This document shows, piece after piece, positions 14,159-49,187 of a DNA stretch of 64,000 nucleotides; the stretch's first letter is position 1, and each line of letters opens with the position of its first letter. Both the position numbers and the translations under genes were made by a program. Origin of the DNA: Octopus vulgaris (taxonomy: Eukaryota); contig OX597823.1 in the NCBI GenBank assembly GCA_951406725.2, forward strand, positions 15,128,001 to 15,192,000. The letters run 5' to 3'. The notes under the pieces were generated by a model that was not told the origin of the DNA, did not search any database, and was given only the letters and a program-made list of their open reading frames with translations.

Positions 14159-14230
14159 AGGCCTCGATGGCAATGGAATCACGAACATCGGAAACGGTTT
14201 TTGGCAACACCTTCAGAATTTAAAGAGATT
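14159..14230 (+). CDS. LRR exon 7, 'WQHL' type (GLDGNGITNIGNGFWQHLQNLKRL)
   Basis: ttcag|72 nt|gtgagt. Confidence 0.9.
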
Positions 14231-14428
14231 GTGAGTTGGGTATATTTTGCTTGTGATTCTATATTTATTAGATTTAATATGTTTCAACGCACGTTCACAC
14301 ATAGATATACATTTATTTTTATATGTCATTATTCAGTTTAATTTCAAAATTTCTCGTCAGTAGGGAAAGAGCTGGTTTCTAGATTCAAGGCTCATGTGTA
14401 TGTTTATATGCATGTATATATGTTTGTA

Positions 14429-16640
14429 TAGATAAACTTAGATAAACTTAGATATGTTTCGACCAAAGATTGGTCCAGGCCATGTCTAGCTTAATAGCAC
14501 CACCTGATAGGATTATTCGAATCCTGTTTAAGGCAAGTTTTGTTTAAGTCAAGTTTTGTTCAAGAAGTGAGTTCTTGTTGGGTGAGTTGTATCAAGCTTT
14601 GTTCAAGTAGTGAGTTCTTGTTGGGTGAGTTGTATCCAATTATGGGTGGCTTATCGGGTATTCTTTGAAGGAATCTATCCAGACTCCGTTTAAAGTTGAT
14701 GGGATCCTTTTCCTCTTTGATCTCCTTCAGGACAATGTTAAATAGGGCAGGGCCTGTTGAGGAAAAGAAATTATGTTGCAGTGTACATGTATGTTGTGAT
14801 CTTGAATTGAGCAGGGGTCGTATGACCCGTGGTCCCAGTCTTGGATGAACCTTGAAGCTAATGTTAAGGTCGTTTGGGCAAAGTTGGTGGTATATTCTCC
14901 ACGTCGTACAAATGATGTACCGCTCACGGCGACGCTGGAGGGAGTAAAGTTTCAAGGCTTTAAGGCGATCCCAATAATCGAGAGCAGCCATGCCTTCAAT
15001 TTGTTTAGTGAGTGCCCTCTGGGGAGACTCAATTCTGGAGATGTTTTGTCTTGTATGGGGAGACCACAGTGGGCAGCAGTATTCAAGGTGTGGCCGTACA
15101 AGGGAGGAAAAAAGTGGTATGATAACACCTTGTTCTCTGGACCGGAAAGTTCTTAAGATCCAGGAACTCATCCTACGAGCTATATCGACCTTCTTGTTGA
15201 TGTGTGCACTCCAACTGAGATCGTCATCAACAATTACACCCAGGTCTCTGATATTGTTAGAGGCTGTGAGCGGTTCCCCTGAAGGAAGAGAGTATGGTTG
15301 TTTTAGTGAGGAATTTCTTCCAAAATGCATCAGCTCAAATTTTCCCTCGTTCAGTTGCATTTTGTTTCTGTCTGCCCGTTAACTCACGGCATATAGATCA
15401 GACTGGAGTTGTGTTCGGTCTGCTTCCTCATTGACGATTTGCTGGAGCTTAGTGTCATCAGCAAATATTTCCACTTTGCAGTAATGTACGACACTGGAAA
15501 AGTGGTTTATGTAAATTATGAAGAGTAGCGGATCGAAAACAGTCCCCTGGGGAACACCGCTGGTGACTTTTGCAGGGCTTGAGTGGACTCCATCAACTAC
15601 AACATGTTGTGTTCTATTCGCCAGGAAATACTTAATCCAGTGTAGAACTTTTCCACGGATTCCAACATTTGCCAATTTTGAGAGTAGGATATTATGGTCT
15701 ACCCTGTCGAACGCTTTACTGAAGTCAAGATATATGACGTCAGAGTTCGAACCTGTTCCCAAGGCTTTGAGTACATCTTCAATGTGGTGTAAGAGCAGTG
15801 TTAGACAGTCCCTGCCACAGCGAAAGTCATGCTGATTTGTATTTATGAGTTTGTGGGTCTCCAGGAAGTCAGCTATCCTTGATCTTAGCACTCTTTCAAA
15901 CACTTTAATGATGTGGGAGGTGAGTGAGATTGGGCGATAGTTGACTGCGAGGGATCTGTTTCCCTGTTTGAAAACCGGGATGACCGACTGGGATAGAAAC
16001 TGTTTCGGTATATAACCTGCGTCTAACGAATTTCTCCAGAGGTTGGTCAGAGGGACTCCAAGTTGGTGTCTACATTCCTTCAGGAGACTAGCGGTGAATC
16101 TATCAGGGCCTACAGCAGTGTAATATTTGACCTCATTTATTGCTGCTACGATGTCAGTGGCAGTGAAGGTTATGTCTGAGATTTTATGTTGGGAGTCAAC
16201 TTCGTTCGTTTCTCTTACGTCAATATCAGTGGGAACACTGGAGACAGAGCAGTATTGTTTCTGCAGTATTTCTGCCATTTCTTTAGCATCGTGTTGGGGA
16301 ATGCCGTTATCATCAATCAATGGCCCAATGGGTGAGACAGTGGTTCTATGCTTATTTGCATAAGAATAGAACACTTTTGGGTTCTATTTGATGTTTTTGA
16401 TTACCCACTGTTCCTCCTCAGCTCTTTGATTTTCAATGGAGGTTTTCATGTTGGTCTGCAGATGAAGTTTTTCCATCTCTAGTCTTTTCATTGTTGTTGA
16501 ATGTGGATGTTGTGTGTGGGAATATTTCAATTGGTTGATTTTTTGTTGAGTCTTTTGATGCGCCTGATGAGTGTTTTTTTTCTTTTTAGGGAGCCGGTTT
16601 CTGTTTGTGTTAGTAGATTTCGTGGGAGCGTGTTTAGAGC
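14429..16640 (-). mobile_element. 5'-truncated CR1/L2/Jockey-group LINE (RT ORF with one in-frame stop at 15379-15381)
   Basis: NYRPISLTS, YLDFSKAFD, GVPQG, FADD, VRPHLEY; (TCTAAGTTTA)n 3' tail. Confidence 0.93.
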
Positions 16641-16663
16641 ATGTATAGGTGACAATGTTTTCA

Positions 16664-16718
<55 letters not shown>

Positions 16719-16861
16719 TGTATGTATGTATGTATGTATGTATATACAGGCGTGTATAAGTGTGTATCGTTGTATTGAAGGATGTAGGTATACATATTAT
16801 ATTCTTCTACTTACACATGTCTTTCATTTATTCTTATATATAGATACTTATATATAGACGC

Positions 16862-16895
<34 letters not shown>

Positions 16896-16899
16896 GTGC

Positions 16900-16954
<55 letters not shown>

Positions 16955-17446
16955 TGGATAGACATGCACGCATGCACATACATATGCAATTATACACACA
17001 CATTCACACATACACACACATACAGAGTCAAAGATACAAATATACGTACATAAATATAGATTTTATGTTTCCACACACATACGTACATATACATATATTT
17101 TTATACGTCATTCAGTTCAAAATTTCTTACCAATAGAAAAGGAGCTTGTTTCTAACCTAGATCCAAGGTTCGTGTGTATGCATGTTTGTATGCGTGTATA
17201 TATGTTTGTATATATATATATATGCGTGTATATGTGTGTATGATGAGAAAGATGCATTTGTGGCGATGGGCGTGTGTGTACATATATTCTTCTACTTACC
17301 TTATCTCAGGCCTCCAGGCTCCTCTCAGCTATTCCTTTTCTATACAACCCACTTTTCCTACCAAAATCTCAATAACTCTTCTTCACACTTTAATGTCCTC
17401 TAATGATCTGTCTTTTCATTTTATGGTTTGTCTTTTCATTTTTCAG

Positions 17447-17518
17447 AAACCTTGCTTATAATGAAATATCGAACATTGAAGAAGGTAAATTCGAAAACCT
17501 TGACAGTTTAAAGAAGCT
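17447..17518 (+). CDS. LRR exon 8, 'FKNL' type (NLAYNEISNIEEGKFENLDSLKKL)
   Basis: ttcag|72 nt|gtaagt. Confidence 0.92.
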
Positions 17519-17971
17519 GTAAGTTGAATCAGACTTGTCGTGTATGTTTATGAATTTTATATATGTATAGTAAACTCCCTCATATTCAACACCAACAGGG
17601 TCCAGAGAGTTGCTGAATAGCAACTTTTCCAGATATAGGATCATTTATTAAATGGTACAAAGCACCTTACAGAACTCACTAAAACTCTAAATATCCAGTG
17701 CGCGGAATCGCCCTTGTGTGTCATTGTGACATACAAAATGGAGTGTTGCTTTTGAAACTAGAGTATTTTGTTTTACTGCACTTATTGCATGTACGTGTAT
17801 TTTTAAGATTAGTAAACCTTATTTCTTACTCAAACTATACTTGTATTTTCCCCTATTTCCCTCATTTCTACTATTTTCAAAATATCACTAATAGATATAT
17901 AAAGTTTTAATGAATTTTGTAAGCTGCTTTGAACTATTTGATAAGTGATGATCAGTTATCAGGAACATTCA

Positions 17972-18045
<74 letters not shown>

Positions 18046-18231
18046 GGCAAGAAATAATTTTTATTTCTTGTTATAGAAACAAAAGGGTTTATAGGACTGC
18101 AAAAAAAGTGCTCAAATGTAATTGAGACAGAGATAAAAAAAAAACATTGATCATAGAACAAACATCAAATTCGAGTCAACGACTTTATATATAACACCAT
18201 ACCTCGAAATATTTGATCATATATAAATATT

Positions 18232-18407
18232 ACCGTGGCTGTGTGGCAAGTAGCTTGCTTACCAACCACATGGTTCCGGGTTCAGTCCCACTGCGTGGCA
18301 CTTTCGGCCAAGTGTCTTCTACTATAGCCTCAGACCGACCAAATCCTTGGGAGTGAACTTCGTAGACGGAAACTGAAAGAAGCCCGACGTAAATATATAT
18401 ATGTATG

Positions 18408-18448
<41 letters not shown>

Positions 18449-18710
18449 GAAATGATTTTTTTTTGACGTACTCTTTTGTTTGAGTGGAGTAAGAAAATAT
18501 TTTTAGTCGAGTGTTTTTATATATATATATATATATGTTTGTGTGTCTGAGTTTGTCCCACCACCATCGCTTGACAACCGATGTCGGTGTGTTTACGTCC
18601 CCGTAACTTAGCGTTTGGCAAAGAAGACCGATAGATTGATTCCTGGGATGGATTTGTTCGACTAAAGGTGGTGCTCCATCATGTCCTCAGTTAAATGACT
18701 GACAAAAATA
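18232..18710 (+). mobile_element. tRNA-derived SINE with internal microsatellite (same family at 60225-60640 and 62646-63230)
   Basis: tggctgtgtgg.aag A box, ggttcagtccc B box, shared 3' half. Confidence 0.8.
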
Positions 18711-19092
18711 TAGGAATATAAAGTATACATATATAAAAAAAAACACTCGACTAAAAATATTTTCTTACTCCACTCAAACAAAAGAGTACGTCAAAAAAAA
18801 ATCATTTCATGAAAATCATGGTAGGTTGGAGTCCAGGAGCAAAAAGTTTCACAGAATCAAGTCAAACACACCTATGGACATTTCGGGAGTTCATTGCCGC
18901 TGTTCGGTTACGAGTTAAAGTGCAATGAGCCCCCTCTTCACCACGATGAACAGGAAACTCAACAAAAAGTTTTTTTTATTCTTTTGTTGAGTTTCCAGCT
19001 CATCCTGATGAGGGTTCATTGCCGAGATGAAGGGATCATTCCTGCATCTCGATCCTTTGACCTTACATTTATCTATCTATTTATCTAATATA

Positions 19093-20384
19093 CGAGGGGC
19101 GTTCAATATGTAATGCCCCTGACCCACTTCCCATAGCAGTAGAGCAACGAAACTTGGCACAGTTATTAGTCTTTTTCTACATAGGAACCACCCAGAGTTA
19201 CGCATTTCTCCCATCGTTTGATGCGGCTCTGGAGACCGTTTTTGTAGATGAACCCAGCTTGGTCCTCCAACCTCAACGTGACTTCAGAAATCAAGGCTGC
19301 ATCATCTGGAAAACGCTTTCCTTTCAAAAACAACTTCATGACTGGGAAGAGGTGAAAATCAGAGGGTGCAGGTCAGGAAAGTAGGGGGGATGGGGGAGGA
19401 GTTCATAGCCATACGCCTGTGCTTCTGATCTGGCGACAAGCGAGTTGTGGACCGGAGCGTTGTCCTGCAGGAGGAGGATGCCTTTGCTGATCTTGCCCCG
19501 CCTCTTGATTTTGATAACTTCTCTTAATTTCCTCAAAAGTGAAGCATAATAGGCTCCTGTAATTGTGGTACCCTTTGCCAGGAAATCTGTCATCACTACT
19601 CCGTCCTGGTCCCAGAAGACTGTGAACATGACCTTGCCAGCGGAGGGCTGCACCCTTGCCTTCTTTGGAGAGGGTGAGTCATGGTGCTTCCACTGCATTG
19701 ACTGGGCTTTGGTCTCTGGATCATCGTGATGGACCCAGGTTTCATTCTTTGTAATCAGTCTTTTGAAAAATTTTGACGCATCTTCTTGGCACATCTCCAA
19801 ATTCATCCTCGAGCACTCGACGCCTTCTTGCTTCTGGAAAGGTGTGAGCAACCTGGGAATCCATCTGGCAGACACCGTTTGCATATGCAAATGGTCATGA
19901 ATGATAGTTTGTACAGACCCGGTACTAATCTTGACCTCATGGGCTATTTGGCGAGTAATTATGCGTCGATCTTCCAAAATGGCACCCTCAACTTGACGGA
20001 CAGATGCCTCATCAATGGCAGAAGCGGAGCGACCAGATCTGGGAGCTGTTTCCACAGAGTTCCGACCATGTTTGAATTCACGATGCCAGCGTTTTACAAG
20101 GTCATATGATGGGGCATCATCACCATAAGTTACTTTCATTTCATCAAAAGTCTCCCGTAGTGTGCGTCCTTTCAAATACAAAAACCGGATCACTGCTCGA
20201 CACTCAACAGGTTCCATTTCACACTTGACTCAGTTCAAACACCTGTAAATCAGAAACCACAATTAGTTCAGAGCTGTAATTTGTCACTTACTCTACAGAG
20301 ATATCAATAATTGCACATGCAAAATTCCAGCTAGATCAAACAATTGCAAATGGGTCAGGGACATTACTTATTGAACGTCCCTCG
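19093..20384 (-). mobile_element. Full-length (1292 bp) mariner transposon, inactive
   Basis: TA-flanked TIRs cgagggg.gttcaata.gtaatg; ORF 19336-20217 with WIPRLL and QDNAPVH; first catalytic D reads N (TKNETW); frameshift at YSPDL. Confidence 0.95.
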
Positions 20385-20579
20385 TATGTGTGTGCATGTA
20401 GGCATGTATTTACGAAAATATATACAATCAACAAACATATATACAAATTCATAAAACTATACATATTCATATTAATGTATATATACACACGAACTTCTTT
20501 CATCCCATATACATGAGTGAACGTCTAAAAACCGATGCATTTCAAGTGCATCTGCTACATATAGTCTTACGTTTTTCAG

Positions 20580-20651
20580 AGACCTGACCGACAACAGAAT
20601 TACGAAGATCGAAGATGGTTCTTGGCAACACCTTGAAAAGTTAAAGGAATT
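20580..20651 (+). CDS. LRR exon 9, 'WQHL' type (DLTDNRITKIEDGSWQHLEKLKEL)
   Basis: ttcag|72 nt|gtgagt. Confidence 0.92.
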
Positions 20652-21081
20652 GTGAGTTGGGTATATTTTGCCTCTCATTCTATATTTATTAGATTTTATA
20701 TGTTTCTACGAACATGCACACACATATATATATACATATATTTTTATATGACCTTATTCAGTTTTATTTCAACATTTCTTGCCAATTGAGAAAGTGTTGG
20801 TTTCTAACCTAGATCCAAGGCTTGTTTGTATGCATGTCTGTATGCATGTATATATGTTTGTGTGTGTATATATATATATATATGTATGTATGTATGTATG
20901 TATATATATTTATATAGTGACGTATTTTTGCCATTTCAATATGGCTAACCCCTAAGGGTGGCTGCTACTGTAGTTTTTAGCCCCAGGAGGACACACTCCT
21001 CCAGCTGGCCATAGACACACTATCTGTGTCCTGTCAGTATCTGCAAAGGGAAGTCATCCTTCCCGTCTTCAACTTATGATA

Positions 21082-21126
21082 CACACGGACTCGAGTTTCG
21101 AGGTATTGACCTCTCGTCAGCGTGTG
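21082..21126 (-). ncRNA. Type I minimal hammerhead ribozyme, inverted copy
   Basis: Exact reverse complement of the same motif. Confidence 0.85.
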
Positions 21127-21430
21127 ACAATCATAGTTGTCGCCGAGAATAGATTTCCTTCACAAATACTTATACTTTTTCCAGCGTCCACTGTCGCTGA
21201 TATTGAAAAAGTGAAATCAAACAATGATAAATACAGTAGCATCCACCCTTAGGGGTTAGCCATATTGAGATGGCAAATATACGTCACGATGTGTTACCGC
21301 TACTGTATATAACTCACTTTGATATTTATCATTGTTTGATTTCACTTTTTCAATATCAGCGACAGTGGACGCTGGAAAAAGTATAAGTATTTGTGAAGGA
21401 AATCTAATTCTCGGCGACAACTATGATTGT

Positions 21431-21475
21431 CACACGCTGACGAGAGGTCAATACCTCGAAACTCGAGTCCGTGTG
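21431..21475 (+). ncRNA. Type I minimal hammerhead ribozyme, copy 1
   Basis: CACACG-CTGACGA-GAGGT(CAAT)ACCTC-GAAA-CTCGAG-TC^CGTGTG: stem I, canonical core, stem II, palindromic stem III, GUC site at 21469. Confidence 0.85.
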
Positions 21476-21784
21476 TATCATAAGTTGAAGACGGGGAAGG
21501 ATGACTTCCCTTTGCAGATACTGACAGGACACAGATAGTGTGTCTATGGCCAGCTGGAGGAGTGTGTCCTCCTGGGGCTAAAAACTACAGTAGCAGCCAC
21601 CCTTAGGGGTTAGCCATATTGAAATGGCAAAAATACGTCACGATGTGTTACCGCTACTGTATATAACTCACTTTGATATTTATCATTGTTTGATTTCACT
21701 TTTTCAATATCAGCGACAGTGGACGCTGGAAAAAGTATAAGTATTTGTGAAGGAAATCTAATTCTCGGCGACAACTATGATTGT

Positions 21785-21829
21785 CACACGCTGACGAGAG
21801 GTCAATACCTCGAAACTCGAGTCCGTGTG
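21785..21829 (+). ncRNA. Type I minimal hammerhead ribozyme, copy 2
   Basis: Identical motif 354 nt downstream; predicted cut after 21823. Confidence 0.85.
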
Positions 21830-22138
21830 TATCATAAGTTGAAGACGGGAAGGATGACTTCCCTTTGCAGATACTGACGGGACACAGATAGTGTGTCTAT
21901 GGCCAGCTGGAGGAGTGTGTCCTCCTGGGGCTAAAAACTACAGTAGCAGCCACCCTTAGGGGTTAGCCATATTGAAATGGCAAAAATACGTCACGATGTG
22001 TTACCGCTACTGTATATAACTCACTTTGATATTTATCATTGTTTGATTTCACTTTTTTCAATATCAGCGACAGTGGACGCTGGAAAAAGTATAAGTATTT
22101 GTGAAGGAAATCTAATTCTCGGCGACAACTATGATTGT

Positions 22139-22183
22139 CACACGCTGACGAGAGGTCAATACCTCGAAACTCGAGTCCGTGTG
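22139..22183 (+). ncRNA. Type I minimal hammerhead ribozyme, copy 3
   Basis: Identical motif a further 354 nt downstream; predicted cut after 22177. Confidence 0.85.
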
Positions 22184-22395
22184 TATCATAAGTTGAAGAC
22201 GGGAAGGATGACTTCCCTTTGCAGATACTGACGGGACACAGATAGTGTGTCTATGGCCAGCTGGAGGAGTGTGTCCTCCTGGGGCTAAAAACTACAGTAG
22301 CAGCCACCCTTAGGGGTTAGCCATATTGAAATGGCAAAAATACGTCACGATGTGTTACCGCTACTGTATATAACTCACTTTGATATTTATCATTA

Positions 22396-22455
<60 letters not shown>

Positions 22456-22460
<5 letters not shown>

Positions 22461-22726
22461 GAAATGAGGTAATCAGAAGATCGGATGGTTCATATTTATA
22501 GATATTTATTTATATATTACATTTTTTACATATATATATCATATCATTCAGATCATATCATTCGGATTATTAGCGCTTTCTCCCATTCCAGTGGGGTTTT
22601 CAAATCAAATCAATTCCTTTGTGGGGAATTTGGTCATTTTATAGAGTTTCGTAGTAGTGAGGAGGAACAAGATAGTATAAGAGGGTGAGGTGGGTGAGGA
22701 GGAAGTGAGAGAGAGAACATGTGTGT

Positions 22727-22757
<31 letters not shown>

Positions 22758-24176
22758 CGTTTGTATCTGAGGCTAAAGAGAAAAAGGGGAGGGGAGAGGG
22801 AAGAAGAAGTATTTCTTTTGGCCTGCTGGACCCCCTAGGGTTTTCTAAGAATTTTAGCTCTCTGTCCATTCTGGTGTCACTGAGTGTGTGTTGGTGGGTA
22901 GGCTGGCCGGACAAATGTCATTTGGGGTCATACTTTCTATGGTCGTTTTGTGGAGGTGTGTGTGTGTGTGTGTGTGTCTGTATATGTTACCTGTTATATA
23001 CATTATATTGTTTTTGTAATTTACTTGATCTTTACTTGCCAATTGTCATTCTACTTTTAACCTTCCTATGATATGCAATTTTCAAGATGGTGTAATTTGA
23101 TTGTTCATTTTGATTCGATAGAAGGTGGGTTTTTCTCTAATATTTCATGTGTAAGCATGTATATATATATATATATAGTGACATTGAAGGACGCATCTTT
23201 CGATTTACAATCTAATATAGTAGAACATTTAGTATATGTCTGTATGTGTATATATATATATATCTGTGTATGTATATATGTATATTGCCTGTTATATACA
23301 TTATATTATTATCTTTATAATTTACTTCCATCTTTACCTTTTAATTGTCACTTTAATTTTAACTTTCCTATGATATACAATTTTCAAGATGGTGTAATTT
23401 GGTTGTTCATTTTGAACCGATAAAAGGGTTTTTTTCAAATATTTTATGTATAAGTCTGTGTGTATATATATGTATTGGTATAAATATCAACACACAAAAA
23501 TATTTTTTTCTTCTTCTCCATTTCCTCCCTTATTTTTATTTATTTTTTATTTTTTTATTTTTTTTTTTTATTTTTATATTTATTTTTATTTTTATTTTCC
23601 CTTTTCTCTTTTTGTCTCTCTCCCCTTCTCCAAACACACAGAGACACACACACACACGCACACAAACACACACGGACACACAGACACACACACACACCTC
23701 CACAAAACGATCATAGAAAGTATGACCCCAAATGACATTTGTCCGGCCAGCCTACCCACCAACACACACTCAGTGACACCAGAATGGACAGAGAGCTAAA
23801 ATTCTTAGAAAACCCAGGCCAAAGGAAATACTTCTTCTTCCCTCTCCCCTCCCCTTTTTCTCTTTAGCCTCAGATACAAACGCACACACACACACACATA
23901 CACACACACACATGTTCTCTCTCTCACTTCCTCCTCACCCACCTCACCCTCTTATACTATCTTGTTCCTCCTCACTACTACGAAACTCTATAAAATGACC
24001 AAATTCCCCACAAAGGAATTGATTTGATTTGAAAACCCCACTGGAATGGGAGAAAGCGCTAATAATCCGAATGATATGATCTGAATGATATGATATATAT
24101 ATGTAAAAAATGTAATATATAAATAAATATCTATAAATATGAACCATCCAATCTTCTGATTACCTCATTTCTTCTA
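22456..24176. repeat. About 500-bp inverted repeat (22456-22980 vs 23680-24176), Penelope-terminal-like
   Basis: Identical 67-aa ORF on opposite strands; arms are near reverse complements. Confidence 0.9.
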
Positions 24177-24208
24177 ATATATAATACCTGTACATCATCT
24201 CCAAACCT

Positions 24209-24294
<86 letters not shown>

Positions 24295-24541
24295 GCGTGT
24301 ATATGTGTGTATGATGAGAAAGATCCATTTGTGGTGATGGGTGTATATGTACATATATTCTTCTACTTATCCATGTCTCTCATTTATCCTTAGCTTATCT
24401 CAGGTCTTCAGGCTCCTCTCAGCTATTCTAATTCTATACAACCTCACCTTTCCTACAACAATCTCAGTAACTCTTGTTCATACTTTAATGTCCTCTAAAG
24501 GTCTGTCTTTTCATTTTATGGTTTGTTTTTTCATTTTTCAG

Positions 24542-24613
24542 AAACCTTGCTTATAATGAAATATCGAATATTGAAGAAAGTAGCTTCAAAAACCTCGGCA
24601 GTTTGGAGGAGAT
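24542..24613 (+). CDS. LRR exon 10, 'FKNL' type (NLAYNEISNIEESSFKNLGSLEEI)
   Basis: ttcag|72 nt|gtaaat (weaker donor than its paralogues). Confidence 0.88.
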
Positions 24614-24629
24614 GTAAATTGAATCAAAC

Positions 24630-24876
<247 letters not shown>

Positions 24877-25029
24877 CGTAGTATATATGTACAGTAAATT
24901 CCCTCACATTCAGCACCAACGGGTCCTCAAGGTTGTGGAATAACTCAAGTTTCCAAGTATCTGATTATCATTTATCAAAACCCGGTGCATTTCAATTGCA
25001 TCTGCTACATATACCCTTACATTTTTCAG

Positions 25030-25101
25030 AGACCTGAGCAAAAACAGAATTACGAAGATCGGAGATGATTCTTGGCAACACCTTCAGAATTTAAAGAAAT
25101 T
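25030..25101 (+). CDS. LRR exon 11, 'WQHL' type (DLSKNRITKIGDDSWQHLQNLKKL)
   Basis: ttcag|72 nt|gtgagt. Confidence 0.92.
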
Positions 25102-25311
25102 GTGAGTTGGGTATATTTTGCCTCTCATTCTATATTTATTAGATTTTATATGTTTGTACGCACATTCACACACACATATATATATACATTTATTTTTATA
25201 TGTCATTATTCAGTTTAATTTCAAAATTTCTCGTCAGTAGGGAAAGAGCTGATATCTGACCTAGATTCAAGGCTCATGTGTATGTTTATATGCATGTATA
25301 TATATTTGTAT

Positions 25312-25376
<65 letters not shown>

Positions 25377-25642
25377 TGTATGTATGTATGTATGTGTGTA
25401 TGTATAGGCGTGTATATGTGTGTATCGTTGTATTGATGGATGTAGGTGTACATATTATATTCTTCTACTTACACATGTCATTCATTTATTCTTAGCTTAT
25501 CTCAGGTCTTCAGACTCTTCTCAATCATTCCTTATCTATACTGCCCACCATTCCTACCAAAATCTCAATAACTCTTCTTCACACTTTAATGTCCTCTAAT
25601 GATCTGTCTTTTCATTTTATTGTTTGTCTTTTCATTTTTCAG

Positions 25643-25714
25643 AATCCTTTCTAGGAATCAAATATCGAATATTGAAGAAAGTAGCTTCAAAAACCTCGTC
25701 AATTTGGAGGAACT
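25643..25714 (+). CDS. LRR exon 12, 'FKNL' type (ILSRNQISNIEESSFKNLVNLEEL)
   Basis: ttcag|72 nt|gtaagt. Confidence 0.92.
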
Positions 25715-26207
25715 GTAAGTTGAATTAGACTTGTATATATAAACGCATGGTATATATGTACAGTACACTCCCTCATATTCAACACCAATAGGTTCTGAGG
25801 TCTACTGAAAAACGTAATTTTCCAGATATCTGATCATCACTTATCAAGTGGTCCAAAGCACGATAAAAACTGATTAGAATTCTATATATCCAGTGGGCGC
25901 ATTCGCCTTTGTATGTAATTTTGACATACAAAATGGAGTGTCCCTTCTCAAATACAGCATTTTATTTTACTGCATTTACTGTATATACCCGTATTTTATA
26001 AGATTAATAAAACCTGTTCTTTATGCAAATTATGCTTATATTTTCCGCTACTTCCCTCCTTTCTACTGTGTTCGAGATATTATTGATAGTACTGATGGAT
26101 ATATAGAGTTTTAATGTGTTTTGTAAGGTGATTTGGACCATCTAATAAACGATGGTCAGATATCTGGAAAATTCAGTTATTGAGCAATCCTCAGGTCCCA
26201 TTGGTAT

Positions 26208-26321
<114 letters not shown>

Positions 26322-26801
26322 ATGTGTTGTTGAAAATGCAACTAAATTTCAAAAACTCGTAAATGTTTAAAATATATTCATTTACATAAATACCAAACTA
26401 GTTTCAGCAATATTTTTTGTTTATTAATGGTAAAAGTTTAAAATCAGAAAAAAAGCATCTTTAAAAGTTTCAATGTTGACAAACTAAAACGTTTCACTGT
26501 TGACAAATTAAAATGTTTCAATGTTGATAAATTATCATGTTCAAAACAGAAGGTGTAAGTTTTTCGAAGAACTTAGTCTATGTTCTTAGATGTGGTGGTG
26601 ACTACATTGGTCAAACCAGCTTAACTTTGAGGGATAGACTTACGGTCCACAAGCAACAACCCGGGATCCCACCACTAGGAAAATTCCCGTAAGCATGCAG
26701 CTAGACATACACCCTAGATACCAAATCTTCCATCTCTATCAATGCACTAAAAACCGGTGCATTTCAATTGCATCTGCTACATATACCCTTACATTTTTCA
26801 G

Positions 26802-26873
26802 AGACCTGAGCGAAAACAGAATTAAGAAAATCGGAGATGATTCTTGGCAACACCTTCAGAATTTAACGAAATT
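26802..26873 (+). CDS. LRR exon 13, 'WQHL' type (DLSENRIKKIGDDSWQHLQNLTKL)
   Basis: ttcag|72 nt|gtgagt. Confidence 0.92.
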
Positions 26874-27049
26874 GTGAGTTGGATATATTTTGCCTCTCAT
26901 TCTATATTTATGAGATTTTATATGTTTCTACGCCCATGCACACATAGATATACATATATTTTTATATGTCATTATTCAGTTTAATTTCAAAATTTCTCGT
27001 CAGTAGAGAAAGAGCTGATATCTGACCTAGCTCCAAGGCTCGTATGTAT

Positions 27050-27745
27050 GAATGTGCGGGTAGGGGTGAGGATGTAGGATGAGGGGAAGATGTGGGGTGG
27101 GGTGGGGTGAGGGTGTAGGGTGAGGATGTGCGAGTAGGGGTGAGTATGTGGGGTGGGGGATGTTCGGGTATGTGGGAGTGATATTAGGAAAGTGTCTGTG
27201 GACCAGGAGGTCACATATGTTGTGGGCTCGTTTGAAGGAGGGAAGGGGCAGGTTGGGGAAGATGTGCGAAGTGGAAGGGTCGGAGTGGAGTCGCCGGAAG
27301 GCTCGGAGAATGGTTCGTTGGAGGGGCAGGGTGGAGTGATAGTAGGTGAGGAGAAACGGGAGACGGGCAACGGCGGGACGCGTGCGTGAAGAGAGAGAGC
27401 AGAGGCACGATCCACGGAAATGTTCTGGCAAGGACGGTGTGAATAGTGGTCAGAGGAGATCCAAGCAGGATGAACTGTTGAGGAGTTGAGACTGAGTCTC
27501 AAAGTCATGGTTGTCACTGCAGAGCCTGCGCAGAGGAATTGGGAGTAGAGGATGGAGAGCTTGGTGCGTGTAGGGTGGGTGCAGGATAATTTGAGTTATG
27601 AGTGTGAGTCGGTGTGTTTGTTGTGGGTGGAGGTAGTGAGAGCAGAGTTGTGTATGTTGACCGAAATGGCGAGAAAGGCGACGGAAGTGTTGGAAATGAT
27701 GCAGGAGAATTCCAGGGAGGGATGGAAGGATTGGACAAAACAGAG
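27050..27745 (-). mobile_element. Penelope-like retroelement RT C-terminal fragment
   Basis: Remnants LSTSTYHKQTDSHS and RLPFLLTYYHSTLPLQRTI...IFPNLPLPSFKRAHNICDLLVH. Confidence 0.75.
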
Positions 27746-28917
27746 GAAAGATTCTAGAAAGATTCTATATATATATATATATATATTACAAAATACAAGC
27801 CACTTCTTAACGGGTCTACGACAAACAATTAATATACCTCAACTTTAGAATAAAAGAAATATATACACACACAAATATTACACTCCATAGAATCCATTAC
27901 TAATCAGCCCCATCACAGCTATACTTACACCCATTCATATTCTCCCTTCTCTGTTTTTTCTTCTTCTTCTTCCTCTTCTTCTTCATCATCATCATTATCA
28001 TCATCATCGTCGTCATCATCATCACCACCATCATCACCACCATCTTCTCCTTCTCCTTCTTCTTTTTCTTCTTCTTCATCATCATCATCATCAACATCGT
28101 CATCTTCTTCTACTTCTCCACCTTCCACCCCTTAACCTTGTCACTAATGTCTTTCAGTATAACGCCTATGCAAATTCCATAAACAATTCCTGAATTGAAC
28201 TGCGACTACTGTCAGCCACTGACCATTCAAAATACGACCATTAAGGCATTCCCAGATTTCCCCACCCCCTCTCCACATCAGCCTCATTATTCTTCACCTA
28301 TCCTACCAAGAACTCAAAACGACCTCGAACACACAAGTGCAAACAAGGGAGTCAGAGAAAGGCAGAATGCTACTTATATCTGAACACTACTACAGAAATA
28401 TTCTTTTAAAAAAACTTTTCTTCTAATTTTTCTAAATTTAATTATTTAATCGTTACAGTTGAAAAGGTCTCAAAATGACCGAAACCGGTACTGAAAGATT
28501 CACTATGAAATCATCTTAGCATTTTCTATTTTTGACTTGTTTTTTCATATATATATGTATATATATGTATACATATGTGTGTGTGTGCGTATGTATTATA
28601 TATGTATATATATATATATATGTGTGTGTGTATGTATGTATTATGTATGTATATATATATATATGTGTGTGTGTGCGTACGTGTCTGATGAGGAAGATGT
28701 CTTTGTATTGATGGGTGTATGTGTACATATTATATTCTTCTACTTACATATGTCATTAATTTATTCGTAGCTTATCTCAGGTCTTCAGACTCTTCTCAAT
28801 CATTCCTTATCTATACTGCCCACCATTCCTACCAAAATCTCAATAACTCTTCTTCACACTTTAATGTCCTCTAATGATCTGTCTTTTCATTTTATTGTTT
28901 GTCTTTTCACTTTTCAG

Positions 28918-28989
28918 AACCCTTTCTATGAATCAAATATCGAATATTGGAGAAAGTAGCTTCAAAAACCTCGTCAATTTGGAGGAACT
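28918..28989 (+). CDS. LRR exon 14, 'FKNL' type (TLSMNQISNIGESSFKNLVNLEEL)
   Basis: ttcag|72 nt|gtaagt. Confidence 0.92.
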
Positions 28990-31039: not shown

Positions 31040-32395
31040 GAGGATGCCAGGCCAAAAGGCCTTGAAAGATAGACTAACCCTTGCACAGTACGCCAATGCG
31101 TGCGGTGACTGAAAGATTAAGTCTACTTGTTTATCGTTCGGAAAACCCCAGAGCCTTTAACTCACATAATATTCTGAAAGAAAAACTGCAGGTTATGTGG
31201 AGGGCAAATCCAAGGGCGTGGGTCACCAGGCAGTTCTTTGTGGTGTAGGTGAAGTTTGTCTTTGGTCCTGAAGTTACAAAATGTCTCCAGGAATATACCC
31301 AATCTCTTCAAGCCCTTCTCATCCTGGACAATGCACCAACTCACCCACCTAACTTCAAAGATGACATCTTCGAAAGGTTCAAGTATATAGTTCTCTACAT
31401 TTCACTCAACTCCATTCCCTCCCCTGCCGCCCACGGACCATCAGAAGATTTCTAATTTCAATAAGCTCTTCACCAAGTACCTGCTCCGCTGCTGATTTCA
31501 GGTGACGGAGAGCCCAAGCCTCACTCTTCGAGAGTTCTTGAAGGACCACTATAACATCGGGATATGCCTCAGAATTATTGTTTTGGTCTGGCAGGGTGTT
31601 ACAGAGAGGATCTTGACTTCTACGTGAAGGAAGTAGTAGCCTGAGGTTGAGTCTGAAACGGACTTTGAAAGGCTCGCACCCGAAGCGACAGTGGTGGAGA
31701 AGGTTGTATTTCTCAGCAAGTCCATGGGCCTGGTTGTGAATGAAGGTGGCATCTATGGGTTCATCGAGGAGCACTCCAAGGAACAGACAACGGAAGAGTT
31801 AAAGGGGCGACAGACGCAGCAGCACACGGAGGTTTTGCAAGAAATAGGTGACGCAGAGGAGACAGAGGAGGTTATCTCTACCAGTGCGATAAAGGGAATG
31901 TTGGGAATGTAGGACTTTATTCAAAAGAAACACCCAGAAAAAGTTGCAACTGGGCGTGCGACGGCGCTATTTAATGACACTTGCGAAGCTCATTTCAGAA
32001 GTATTCTGAGAGTGAGGATGCAACAGACCTTATTGGACAGGGTTTTATCGAAAACTTCTGCAGATGAAAGTGAGGAAAGCGTGGCGAAAGGGCGAAAATC
32101 ATGCTCAAGTTGTCTGATTACCAAGGTAAATGCTGTACTTAATAAAACCGATTTATTGCAGTACATTCTATTGTATTGTATTTTATACAATATTTGCTAT
32201 TTATAAGTATATTATTCTTTCTTAAAAACATGTAAGAAAAAATTGCGGTGGTTTAGGGGTGAGGTGGGGGCGGGTTTTTTTTTTACGGATCAATGGCATT
32301 TCAGTTCATTTCAATGGGGAAATTTGATTTGATATACGAGTAATTTCAGTTACCAGCTCCTTCACGGAACGAATTAAATTCGTAAGTCAAGGTAC

Positions 32396-43090: not shown

Positions 43091-46000
43091 ACATACATAC
43101 ATACATACATACATACATACATACATACATACATACATACATACATACATACATACATACACACATACATACATACACACACACATACACAAACACACAT
43201 ACATACTTACATGTTTATATATGTATGTAGCTATGTGCCCATGTGTGTGTGTGTGTGTGTCTTCAATTGACTACAAAAGGCTTTCAAGTTTTAAAAAGAT
43301 GCAAAGTCAACCGAGATGCAATTTGAACTCAGAATGCAAAGACGGATAAGATGCCGCTAAGCGTTTAACTCGGTGTGGTAACGATTCTGCCAGTTTGCCG
43401 CCGCCAGTTGATTGCGTAATATTCATTATATTATATTTATTACACTGTTCATGCACACACACACACACACACACATACATATATATATAAACTAAGTACA
43501 ACATAAATTATGATACCGTAGAACACAAATGCCATATTACAGTAAATTGAAATAAGCATGTGATACACCAAAAACAATACCTCAGTTCAATAGAGCAGAT
43601 ATAGAAACAATTGTAGGCTTATATAAATTAACAAAATATTAATAAATTTATAGTTCTCTGTTAAATATCTCCATTTTCTTCTTTATCACACACACATACA
43701 CACATACACACACACACATATTGGTTAATGACTTTATTCCATTCAGTTATACAAATTTTTTTTTTTTGGGGAAGCAGGCTAAGATGCCTACATGTCTAGT
43801 ATTATATTGGCCAAGGTCGGTCACCTCTCTGGTTTGAAGCGACCAGACAGGTTTTACATTTGCCCTGTGTGCGGAGAGAAAAAGGGTCTTGGGTGCAATT
43901 CAGTTAGTGTTTGCAGCGTATAGTTGCTGTTTATGAGGATGTTTTCTCCGTGAGTGTACTTAATCATGATTAAGAAGTAAAATGAAGGCTTGTTCCACAA
44001 TATCTTTTTGGTGAAACATCAAAATAATCGGCTACTGTTTAGAGGATAATTGTGCTTGTGGGCTAAACGATAAATATAGACACTATTCGTGTTGAGGATA
44101 GTGGTGTAGAGGTGTCTAAGCGATGTAATTTGTGATATTTGACTGAATGAATGCAGTGCAGCTGTAAGAATACGAGGTATTCTGGGTTTCTTTTTAATTT
44201 TTACGTAGGATTCGGAGGATCATTACTAAAAGAATGGTTCCATCGATTCGCCTAACTTCCTCTGATGAATCAGGTGTGAAGCACACGTAGAGTCAGGTTT
44301 AGTTAGAACTGATAGTGTTTTGGCCAATAAACTATCTTGAGGTTCCGTATTCACTGGAAGGTATGGGATTTGCGGACTATATAGAATTTTTTCTACTCTA
44401 GGCACAAGGCCTGAAATTTTGGGAGAGAAGGCCAGTCGATTAGAGATCGACCCCAGTATGCAACTGGTACTTAATTTATCGCCCCGAAAGTATGAAAGGC
44501 GAAGTCGACTTCGGCGGAATTTGAACTAAGAACATAAAGACAGACGAAATATCTATTTCTTTACTACCCAAAAGGGGCTAAACACAGAGCGGACAAACAA
44601 GGACAGACAAACGGATTAAGTCGATTACAGCAACCCCAGTGCGTAACTGGTACTTTATCGACCCTGAAAGCATGAAAGGCGTAGTCGACTTCGGCGGAAT
44701 TTGAACTAAGAACGTAAAGACACGATATATCGCTAAGCATTTCGCCCGGCGTGCTAACGTTTCTGCCAGTTCGCCACCTTTTGTGGAGTATATAGATGTC
44801 TGGCAGGGAGTTTAGATAAGACTGGATATTAAAAAGAGATCAAGGGTGTTTGGACTGTCTTTGTCTCAGGTAAGGGTGCCTGAAAAGCATGAAAGAACTT
44901 GATCTAAAAAGTTAATGTCTATAAAAGATTCGGTTTCTGTAACTGCGGCAAAAATATGCGATGAATGTGACAACCAAGAAAAGTTGAGAATACTGAAATT
45001 AGCGAAGACACGAAGGTTTCAGAATAGGCTGAGATGATTTTGTGTTTAATTTTTGGAGATATCGGATTTATTTTATAAATCTACAGTCATGAAATTATGG
45101 TTTAGAAGTCACCTTCGAAACCATGTGGCTTATGATTTAGTCTCCATGTGCTGCAGCTTGGATAAGTGTTTTGGATTATAAACTCACCGGAACTGATCAT
45201 TGTCTTGCGAATAAATTTAGTAGGCGGAAACTGTGCAGAACCCGTTTCATGTGTGTGTGTGCGTGTGTGCTTGCGCGACAAGTGAGAGACAACACGATAA
45301 AGAAACCTAGTAATTACAAACGAGCAACGAAGGCGACAAAACTAACCTCAACAACAACAACAAAAAAATCAATGGCTTAATGTCAAAGAATTCTGTCCCA
45401 TCCGCTAAGGGAACAAGTACATAAGAGGTATAACATTCACTTGAGAGTAAAAATGTAACGATAAAAATATTGCGTGATATTGTGTCAAATTGTGTGGCGT
45501 GTTTTCATGGTGATGTCGGTAATAGAAATTAGCTACACTACAAGAAAAGTAGTCGCATACAAATGCGTAAATATGAGGAAATCCCATGCCGGTTGGAACA
45601 AAGACGGTTTCTGGAAGTGATTTTGACCATATTGACCAATGAACAATCTAACAGAAACCGTTGCAATCCCAAAAAGGAAAGCAGCGGCAACCACAACGTC
45701 AGACATTGGAACGGAGAGGCAATAAAGACTCTTATAAAAGAGCATAAATACAGATGTATACGTCCCTGATTTTGTTGCCTCATAACATCCAGAAAAATGG
45801 ATACTTTTTAACGAAATGTTCTACAAAAACCACTCAGATGCCGTGACTTCAGAGTATATAGAGATTTATGGGGAATAATTTTTCCTATTTTGGCCATTTT
45901 TTAAAACCTAAGAACTATGGGAAAATTCACGCGGTCCGACTTTATCTCGCTTATAACTTCCAGAAAATGGGTATCTTTTAACGAAAGTTTATACAAATAC

Positions 46001-46359
46001 CTTTCAAACAGCAATGATTACGATTCTAAAGCAATTTATGGGGAATATTTTTTCTGAAAGGATGGGGAGAGGAGTTTCGGATCAGGAAGACCAAATGTGT
46101 TAGAGCAACTTTGCTGTGGCGGGATTTTCCCCATTTTTTTTAAACCATAGCCTTCCAAATGATGGGGTTGGGTTGGGTTGGGTGGGGGCATCGTTATATG
46201 AGAAAAAGTTTGAAACTGTTTTACAACCCCCACTCCCTCATCATCCCACTCCGTACCTATTTCGGTGGTGGTGGTGGTGGTGGATGTGGTGGTGGTGGTG
46301 GTGGATGTGGTGGTGGTGTTGATGGTATATGATTTTTGTTTTAATATTTATCGCTGCAG

Positions 46360-47101: not shown

Positions 47102-49187
47102 GTAAACAGATCTTCCTTTCTCACCTTCTTCTATGATACATCACAATCAAAACTGCCTAGATATTGATAGTCTTCTTTGAACTTCATGTAATGTTCCCTT
47201 TGTCGAAAAATATTTCGATATCTATTCAAATCTTTCTGACAATTAAAATCGTCTGCATCATAGTTCATGTGAATTTATTAACGCTTTGCTCTAAAACCAT
47301 TTTGAAAGCATGAAAGGCGTAGTCGACTTCGGCGGAATTTGAACTAAGAACGTAAAGACACGATATATCGCTAAGCATTTCGCCCGGCGTGCTAACGTTT
47401 CTGCCAGTTCGCCACCTTTTGTGGAGTATATAGATGTCTGACAGGGAGTTTAGATAAGACTGGATATTAAAAAGAGATCAAGGGTGTTTGGACTGTCTTT
47501 GTCTCAGGTAAGGGTGCCTGAAAAGCATGAAAGAACTTGATCTAAAAAGTTAATGTCTATAAAAGATTCGGTTTCTGTAACTGCGGCAAAAATATGCGAT
47601 GAATGTGACAACCAAGAAAAGTTGAGAATACTGAAATTAGCGAAGACACGAAGGTTTCAGAATAGGCTGAGATGATTTTGTGTTTAATTTTTGGAGATAT
47701 CGGATTTATTTTATAAATCTACAGTCATGAAATTATGGTTTAGAAGTCACCTTCGAAACCATGTGGCTTATGATTTAGTCTCCATGTGCTGCAGCTTGGA
47801 TAAGTGTTTTGGATTATAAACTCACCGGAACTGATCATTGTCTTGCGAATAAATTTAGTAGGCGGAAACTGTGCAGAACCCGTTTCATGTGTGTGTGTGC
47901 GTGTGTGCTTGCGCGACAAGTGAGAGACAACACGATAAAGAAACCTAGTAATTACAAACGAGCAACGAAGGCGACAAAACTAACCTCAACAACAACAACA
48001 AAAAAATCAATGGCTTAATGTCAAAGAATTCTGTCCCATCCGCTAAGGGAACAAGTACATAAGAGGTATAACATTCACTTGAGAGTAAAAATGTAACGAT
48101 AAAAATATTGCGTGATATTGTGTCAAATTGTGTGGCGTGTTTTCATGGTGATGTCGGTAATAGAAATTAGCTACACTACAAGAAAAGTAGTCGCATACAA
48201 ATGCGTAAATATGAGGAAATCCCATGCCGGTTGGAACAAAGACGGTTTCTGGAAGTGATTTTGACCATATTGACCAATGAACAATCTAACAGAAACCGTT
48301 GCAATCCCAAAAAGGAAAGCAGCGGCAACCACAACGTCAGACATTGGAACGGAGAGGCAATAAAGACTCTTGTAAAAGAGCATAAATACAGATGTATACG
48401 TCCCTGATTTTGTTGCCTCATAACATCCAGAAAAATGGATACTTTTAACGAAATGTTCTACAAAAACCACTCAGATGCCGTGACTTCAGAGTATATAGAG
48501 ATTTATGGGGAATAATTTTTCCTATTTTGGCCATTTTTTAAAACTTAAGAACTATGGGAAAATTCACGCGGTCCGACTTTATCTCGCTTATAACTTCCAG
48601 AAAATGGGTATCTTTTAACGAAAGTTTATACAAATACCTTTCAAACAGCAATGATTACGATTCTAAAGCAATTTATGGGGAATATTTTTTCTGAAAGGAT
48701 GGGGAGAGGAGTTTCGGATCAGGAAGACCAAATGTGTTAGAGCAACTTTGCTGTGGCGGGATTTTCCCCATTTTTTTTAAACCATAGCCTTCCAAATGAT
48801 GGGGTTGGGTTGGGTTGGGTGGGGGCATCGTTATATGAGAAAAAGTTTGAAACTGTTTTACAACCCCCACTCCCTCATCATCCCACTCCGTACGTATTTC
48901 GGCCAACTTTCGTCGCACTTCCAAACTAAGGGAGGATCCTTTTCGGTAAAAAAAATAATTCTAATATTTTTAGAGGGAAAAGTGAGTGGTTTAAGGTAGA
49001 TTTGGCTGTTGTTTCTAGCACATCCTATGACAACACTCCACGTTTCTTTATCACTCTGGGGTCAATAAATTAAGTACCAGTTGAACACTTGGGTCGATGT
49101 AATCAAGTCATCAAGTGATCCCCTCAAAACGTCTACCCTTGTAGCAAAACTTGAAACCGTTGTTATTATTATTATTATTATTATTAT

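Follow-up and report, generated by a model that had tools for sequence, protein, structure and literature searches.

A hammerhead retrozyme array in an octopus intron carries the insertion footprint of Penelope-like elements

An intron of a putative octopus receptor gene holds a tandem array of ribozyme-bearing units beside an antisense copy of the same unit, which raises the question of what the array is, how it was written into the DNA, and whether it matters to the gene around it. The array lies within 64,000 nucleotides of the Octopus vulgaris genome (contig OX597823.1, positions 15,128,001 to 15,192,000), here called the window. The answer that we hold with good confidence is that it is a single insertion of a non-LTR retrozyme, a young non-coding hammerhead repeat of 353 nt dispersed through the genome, and that a Penelope-like element (PLE), supplying its reverse transcriptase (RT) and GIY-YIG endonuclease in trans, likely placed it in a TA microsatellite. 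Copy number, fixed ends, two arms, TA targets and uniform haplotypes are all directly observed in favor of this reading. The features of the locus are given below in window positions, with the unit numbered from the first base 3' of the predicted ribozyme cut.

20580-20651, +: host LRR exon upstream of the array, ninth in the window
20867-20916, no strand: left (TA)/(TATG) target tract
20917-21233 (20914-21233 in the alignment), -: inverted arm made of unit 208-354 followed by unit 1-172/175, its 3' end at site A next to the TA tract
21082-21126, -: fourth hammerhead, within the inverted arm, predicted cut after 21088
21229-22394, +: sense arm made of unit 114-354, two full units and unit 1-218, its 3' end at site B next to (TA)32
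21232-21280, +: 5'-most piece of the sense arm, with 127T, 154G and 163T against 127G, 154A and 163A in the rest of the insertion
21431-21475, +: type I hammerhead 1, predicted cut after 21469
21470-21823, +: first full unit, 354 nt, 43% GC, folding z-score -6.6
21785-21829, +: type I hammerhead 2, predicted cut after 21823
21824-22177, +: second full unit, 354 nt
22139-22183, +: type I hammerhead 3, predicted cut after 22177
22350-22394, +: "tail" between site A (unit 172-175) and site B (217-221), on one arm only
22394-22457, no strand: right (TA)32 tract
22458-24212, +: separate insertion in the same TA tract, the 5'-truncated 3' region of another PLE family
24542-24613, +: host LRR exon downstream of the array, tenth in the window

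Tandem-repeat and self-alignment coordinates bear out the array of period 354 and the antisense copy recorded by the first-pass annotation. The array spans 21232-22394 (3.3 copies, 99% matches), and the inverted arm is 99% identical to the sense unit over 321 nt. Four identical type I hammerheads are found at the locus, three on the plus strand and one more, complete, in the antisense copy, as an addition to that description. In the proposed Infernal check, each matches the full-length Rfam model RF00163 with all core letters present (32.2 bits, E 1.1e-5), whereas a gathering-level Rfam scan of the window returns no matches because this score falls just under the gathering score of 34. The conserved core and three helices, open at helix I, are those of a type I hammerhead; the extended stem I and the stem III palindrome ACUCGAGU are both present, and the three plus-strand cuts expected earlier were reproduced. 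The array had been described as three units that would release exact 354-nt monomers. Three plus-strand hammerheads are indeed there but bound only two complete units, and although the predicted cuts are 354 nt apart at this locus, the family norm is 353 nt and the two units differ by one substitution, each with its own, different extra homopolymer base. The unit is non-coding (longest ATG frame 84 codons), its GC content lies below the 45-50% limit for retrozymes, and it folds far better than its shuffles (z-score as listed, 0/100). No RT and GIY-YIG frame, nor any long frame, was found in the element, which is thus not an autonomous PLE. A MIR6217 match in the window was rejected, being the hairpin between the two arms.

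The architecture of the ribozyme places it in a defined class. Minimal PLE hammerheads are characterized in passages of PMC4209133 by the absence of helix III, a long helix II of 7 to 8 bp and a short helix I. The octopus motif has a 6-bp helix I with a 5-bp extension, a helix II of 4 to 5 bp and a short palindromic helix III, and the presence of helix III together with the lengths of the other two rules the minimal class out. The first-pass label "minimal" is accordingly replaced by the canonical metazoan type as defined there, for which, when the palindromic helix III is weak, dimeric cleavage is the known mode (PMC4209133). By analogy, the octopus ribozyme likely cleaves as a dimer. A folding calculation, in a model without tertiary contacts, gave helix III a probability of 0.0 in the monomer and about 0.015 in the dimer and as a model lends no support to an active fold.

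When the locus is placed into its genomic context, the array is one copy of a young, dispersed, non-coding family. The exact 33-nt ribozyme core occurs 439 times genome-wide (reversed control, 0), which answers the earlier call for a copy-number check, and the genome search with the whole unit scored the best 40 of 2426 candidates. Mean divergence among copies is 0.85% (180 segments). Spacing between ribozymes is 353 nt in 31/45 intervals and 354 nt in 4/45, so that the standard unit is 353 nt long. The family is thus multicopy and dispersed, with tandem units within the 150 to 450 bp of retrozymes, each with a type I hammerhead. An older subfamily shares about 80% identity with the unit; it has kept the core and also ends near site B described below.

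The strongest evidence for how these copies arose comes from their ends. We mapped 100 clusters, 99 of them complete, drawn from top matches and pattern lists rather than at random. Overlapping or duplicated loci (L004, L008, L010, L013, L014, L021-L023 and L027) and one truncated locus (L020) were left out of the counts; L082 comprises two clusters and was excluded from the haplotype count, and L284 was split in two. The 99 insertions present 151 3' ends, of which 85 fall at site A (unit 170-176), 54 at site B (215-222) and 12 elsewhere, so that 139/151 lie at one of two sites about 45 nt apart. TA abuts 132/151 of these ends, an AT-rich or microsatellite target preference; copies at L229 and L284 sit in (AAT)n or other non-TA AT-rich tracts. 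Target duplications of 12 and 13 nt were found at two of four non-TA loci tested. The 5' starts are scattered over the unit, and all 30 copies retrieved with unit 1-70, which overlap the earlier loci and include the window's own copies, continue upstream into the ribozyme.

Just over half of the insertions (52/99) are two-armed, with the arms joined at their 5' ends. These pair one A end with one B end in 45 cases, two A ends in none and two B ends in one, the other six having an atypical end; at even odds, 45 of 46 has p ~7e-13. The window copy obeys this rule, with A on the inverted arm and B on the sense arm. Fixed 3' ends, a tail that is optional and confined to one arm, 5' truncation and an inverted arm together form the signature of a PLE-mobilized element. 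An inverted 5'-truncated arm, a one-sided tail of 30-40 bp and TA targets are given as PLE hallmarks in passages of 10.1101/2021.04.23.441226, and the same arm, one-ended tail and targets in PMC3846280, while in vitro the PLE tail corresponds to the sequence that separates two internal start sites of the RT (PMC11167929, in part). An internal control is provided by PLE-C, an autonomous PLE of the same genome: among 20 loci, all seven two-armed copies have one short and one long end. The retrozyme, in short, carries a PLE insertion footprint.

These observations also bear on a DNA-level origin, by unequal crossing-over of a satellite or as an assembly artefact. The near-identical tandem units would fit such an origin, and the homopolymer bases that separate 354 from the 353 norm could be read errors. 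Against it stand the dispersal of the copies, the constancy of their 3' ends, their truncation to varying extents at the 5' side, the inversions and the target duplications, together with the shortness of the arrays (longest cluster fully seen, 2195 nt). Since dispersed arrays with locus-specific haplotypes occur on many contigs, the tandem copies are not the assembly artefact that had been named as a possible refutation, and this origin, largely refuted, is hardly credible.

Variation within insertions gives insight into the template. At five polymorphic sites, copies within one insertion agree in 330 of 337 comparisons, where 196 would be expected, and 27 rare variants are common to all copies of a locus, 16 of them across both arms. 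As haplotypes are uniform within an insertion, one RNA sequence likely templates both arms of each event. Such uniformity fits a circle and, equally, a linear multimer from a uniform source array. The window locus is one of few mosaics, the first 50 nt of its sense arm carrying the haplotype of 20 family segments. From its sequence, this start (21232-21280) suggests a likely template switch to a second retrozyme RNA, with gene conversion as the alternative. No RNA-editing signature was seen among the 27 shared variants (A>G 6, T>C 4).

None of the 151 3' ends lies within 10 nt of the predicted ribozyme cut, and arms cross the cut freely. It is therefore conceivable that the same PLE machinery copies an uncleaved linear multimer transcribed from a genomic array, with the ribozyme slow or dispensable and circles uninvolved, and we give this reading an appreciable, if minority, chance of being correct. 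Uniform haplotypes would follow from uniform source arrays, and what has been reported elsewhere points the same way: in the only in vitro PLE system, ribozyme cleavage is not needed and ribozyme-dead PAc RNA inserted normally (PMC11167929, in part), and one of nine tested Xenopus retrozyme dimers cleaved in vitro, the other eight giving no cleavage (10.64898/2026.07.22.740005, in part). A linear template sits less easily with single arms of up to about six units that carry private variants in every unit (L117, L267). Retention of the ribozyme also counts against it: 13/13 core positions are the same in the young unit and in the majority of the older subfamily (p ~0.055, weak alone), and helix II shows an A-U to G-C exchange between the two. 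In 15/16 copies of the older subfamily, the basal pair of helix II is a C-A mismatch, and helix covariation is modest (17 sequences) and stems mostly from the contrast of young and old.

RNA data were approached through the contigs of eight sequencing runs, of which seven were presumed to be RNA and one was of unspecified kind; among the listed holders of the unit sequence, none is on record as RNA. A 383-nt contig (353 + 30) is present in run X1 and in run X2, and joints going back 353 nt occur in X2 and X9. Circle and tandem template are fitted alike by these contigs and joints. Contigs from X7 and X2 share the middle of the unit and then diverge into different sequence, including an apparent other hammerhead variant, and related retrozyme families may thus share a central module.

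The footprint directs attention to an enzyme. Several PLE families with RT and GIY-YIG domains are present in the genome, and no homology of the unit to PLE terminal repeats was found in the PLE loci examined (best 150 of 6136 GIY-YIG candidates scored). Consequently, shared sequence does not point to the helper. The same result bears on the first-pass alternative of a young retrozyme or a Penelope terminal-repeat array, of which the first half holds, as a young Penelope-type retrozyme with a PLE footprint, and the second does not for the PLE families examined. A version of the second, in which the unit is a terminal repeat or deletion derivative of an undiscovered autonomous PLE of this genome, is given room by the share of GIY-YIG candidates scored and by passages of 10.64898/2026.07.22.740005, in which Xenopus retrozymes are homologous to pLTRs and 24/57 families match known elements. 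We consider it unlikely: the unit closes head to tail on itself, none of 100 clusters runs from the unit into a homologous ORF, the PLE loci tested offer no homology, and PLE-C carries a different, variant ribozyme.

The proposed search for linkage to Penelope RT and GIY-YIG frames did yield two loci that join the retrozyme directly to PLE coding sequence. At L002, a young retrozyme copy is joined 5' to 5', through a 12-nt filler, to a truncated PLE-C (96% DNA identity) that runs to its own 3' end, without TA at the junction. At L151, an old-subfamily copy lies behind an RT fragment of the PLE-C lineage on the same strand (80% protein identity), without TA between them. PLE-C is Neptune-like, has intact RT/GIY-YIG frames of 784 aa and, with copies 97-99% identical, is as young as the retrozyme. 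On this sequence evidence PLE-C would be the likeliest helper, an assignment that we make tentatively. The chimeras number one in 100 young clusters and one in 30 old loci, and the L002 retrozyme arm ends at 275, outside the A/B rule. Because neighboring insertions often share a TA tract (L061, L098, L214 and the window), later deletion could give junctions of this type. Another PLE family dominates the first 30 GIY-YIG loci (19/30), in a ranking by profile score that is no measure of abundance. It could be speculated, with slightly less assurance than for PLE-C as helper, that PLE-C copies the ribozyme RNA in trans with no sequence in common: its protein would start synthesis from each nicked strand at two internal sites of a single 353-nt circle, roll on past the ribozyme junction and occasionally jump between the circle and the PLE-C mRNA, giving L002 and L151. 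If true, animal retrozymes would gain, in PLE-C and this retrozyme, a named pair of helper and passenger that could be reconstituted in vitro.

Several other leads toward a partner were rejected. Two ribozymes 3250 bp apart on C2 have no PLE frame between them and do not form an autonomous element, a 926-aa frame near L105 is a LINE, and a loose-end motif from run X6 led to one old degraded copy (L081). None of the full PLE-C copies and GIY-YIG loci examined shares the unit, and L061, L072, L098 and L214 are only neighbors in shared TA tracts. The library for the flank scan included SINE flanks and most matches were noise, so that only ORF-level matches were kept. Separately, the PLE-C terminal repeat (L222 / L205, upstream of the first frame) contains a hammerhead-like motif whose core has the U3-A8 variant and whose helix III is palindromic; the two PLE-C 3' ends lie about 60 and about 90 nt downstream of it. 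Two Neptune-like families (L065 768-4468; L222 2082-5684) have an upstream frame of 436-479 aa that overlaps the RT frame in another phase and has no convincing Pfam match.

Returning to the preferred reading of a retrozyme written in trans by PLE machinery, the following course of events can be proposed. A tandem array would be transcribed, paired hammerheads would cut the RNA to unit length, and a host ligase would close the circle. The PLE protein may bind this structured RNA and nick the two strands of a TA tract at positions offset by about 12 nt. From each nick, reverse transcription could then start at one of two positions inside the unit (172-175 and 217-221), which lie at least 172 nt downstream of the ribozyme cut. 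Both cDNAs would extend upstream through the ribozyme junction, for up to several rounds on the same sequence, and their 5' ends would finally be linked, in some cases following a switch to another RNA. The return of animal retrozymes to DNA has so far been proposed, not shown, and the existing in vitro PLE assay makes the question open to direct test. The family predicts two RT start sites, of which each strand uses one, and a TA cut staggered by about 12 nt, and it offers a candidate enzyme whose frames are intact. The link between retrozymes and PLEs is already in print; to it this family contributes a clean end count, a control PLE from the same genome, a paralogous site that is empty, and a candidate helper.

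That empty site lies within the host gene. The window contains 15 LRR-like exons of 69-72 nt on the plus strand, four of which were checked against Pfam, with an LRRNT domain just upstream of them and, further along this strand, GPS and 7tm_2 domains. This makes an LRR adhesion GPCR the likely host, taken as a single gene from the order and strand of its pieces. The position first reported for the array, sense to the receptor pre-mRNA between LRR exons 9 and 10, agrees with plus-strand exons at 20580 and 24542; these exon numbers are relative to the window, as the gene starts upstream of it. A paralogous, duplicated intron (25102-25642, 541 bp) aligns with both flanks and is without the insertion, which shows that the element entered a pre-existing TA tract. 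Two-exon LRR modules and their introns are tandemly duplicated across 14159-28989 at 80-92% identity, from which the LRR array of the receptor appears to be expanding.

A role in the host gene would require that the array has been kept as a regulator, one that severs the pre-mRNA or gives rise to a functional circle and is switched by the inverted arm. Three ribozymes do lie sense to the host transcript, and in the folding predictions the inverted arm takes up the whole 45 nt of ribozyme 1 in nascent RNA and pairs with ribozyme 2 in longer RNA. The masking that had been suggested is supported to this extent. In the same predictions, two ribozymes stay free beside the arm and only one can be masked at a time, and since 52/99 insertions are two-armed, the arm is a routine insertion by-product and provides no locus-specific control. 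The insertion is, moreover, very young and built like other family members, the paralogous intron is empty, and neither conservation nor expression evidence speaks for regulation. Nothing found points to a regulatory role, which we regard as very improbable, and the intronic copy is probably a neutral or mildly harmful passenger. The locus itself is of little weight unless its intronic ribozymes lower receptor mRNA. In Xenopus tropicalis, about 44% of retrozyme copies are intronic, though depleted there (10.64898/2026.07.22.740005, in part).

The surroundings of the array contain further mobile elements. The PLE remnant at 22458-24212 comes with an inverted arm of its own (about 22458-22988), and one of its two arms, not the other, bears a tail of about 36 nt. 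It matches the DNA that immediately follows the GIY-YIG frames of L075 and L162. Translations read as a LINE-like RT remnant at 14560-16383 (-) and as a mariner-like transposase frame at 19336-20229 (-); a fragment of a further PLE family lies at 26987-27758 (-) and a DDE_1 fragment at 31078-31245 (+). A 1.6-kb direct duplication (44665-46265 and 47303-48902, 99.7% identity), with smaller near-identical pieces around it, is either a recent duplication or an assembly overlap.

How does this family compare with known systems? Plant LTR retrozymes carry type III hammerheads in their LTRs and are flanked by a 4-bp target duplication, and the type I motif, tandem units and 12-13 nt duplications rule out this class for the octopus element. 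By title and abstract, no octopus hammerhead element like this was found in the literature, and none of the general cephalopod papers listed contained "retrozyme"; Repbase or Dfam may already catalogue the family. Metazoan non-LTR retrozymes include units of 350-390 bp in mussel and of 331 and 353 nt in axolotl (Cervera and de la Pena 2020, PMC7229834, in part). The octopus unit meets the sequence-level definition of this class, sharing with its members short tandem units, one type I hammerhead each, GC below 45%, no long ORF and a highly self-paired RNA, and its helix III resembles that of axolotl HHR_Amex1, with one base pair beyond A-U and a palindromic tetraloop. Cleavage and linear and circular RNA were shown for the retrozymes of PMC7229834, whereas the octopus family is known from its sequence; two fixed ends and inverted arms are features of the octopus family without description in the passages of that paper.

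The work of Li, Clavereau and Pollet (2026, 10.64898/2026.07.22.740005) arrives, in the parts considered here, at the same class of helper and at frequent intronic copies. There the helper evidence consists of co-occurrence and pLTR homology in vertebrates, whereas the octopus family lacks pLTR homology and the evidence comes from an insertion footprint and two chimeric junctions. The closest likeness in insertion structure is to EN+ PLEs (Neptune, Penelope/Poseidon and Naiad), which, in the passages of 10.1101/2021.04.23.441226, PMC11167929 and PMC3846280, have partial tandems, an inverted 5'-truncated arm, a one-ended tail, TA targets, short target duplications and a ribozyme upstream of two 3' ends. 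Unlike those elements, the octopus unit has no RT or GIY-YIG frame, its tail measures 43-49 nt as against 30-40, and its ribozyme is canonical where minimal variants are usual in animal PLEs (PMC4209133, in part).
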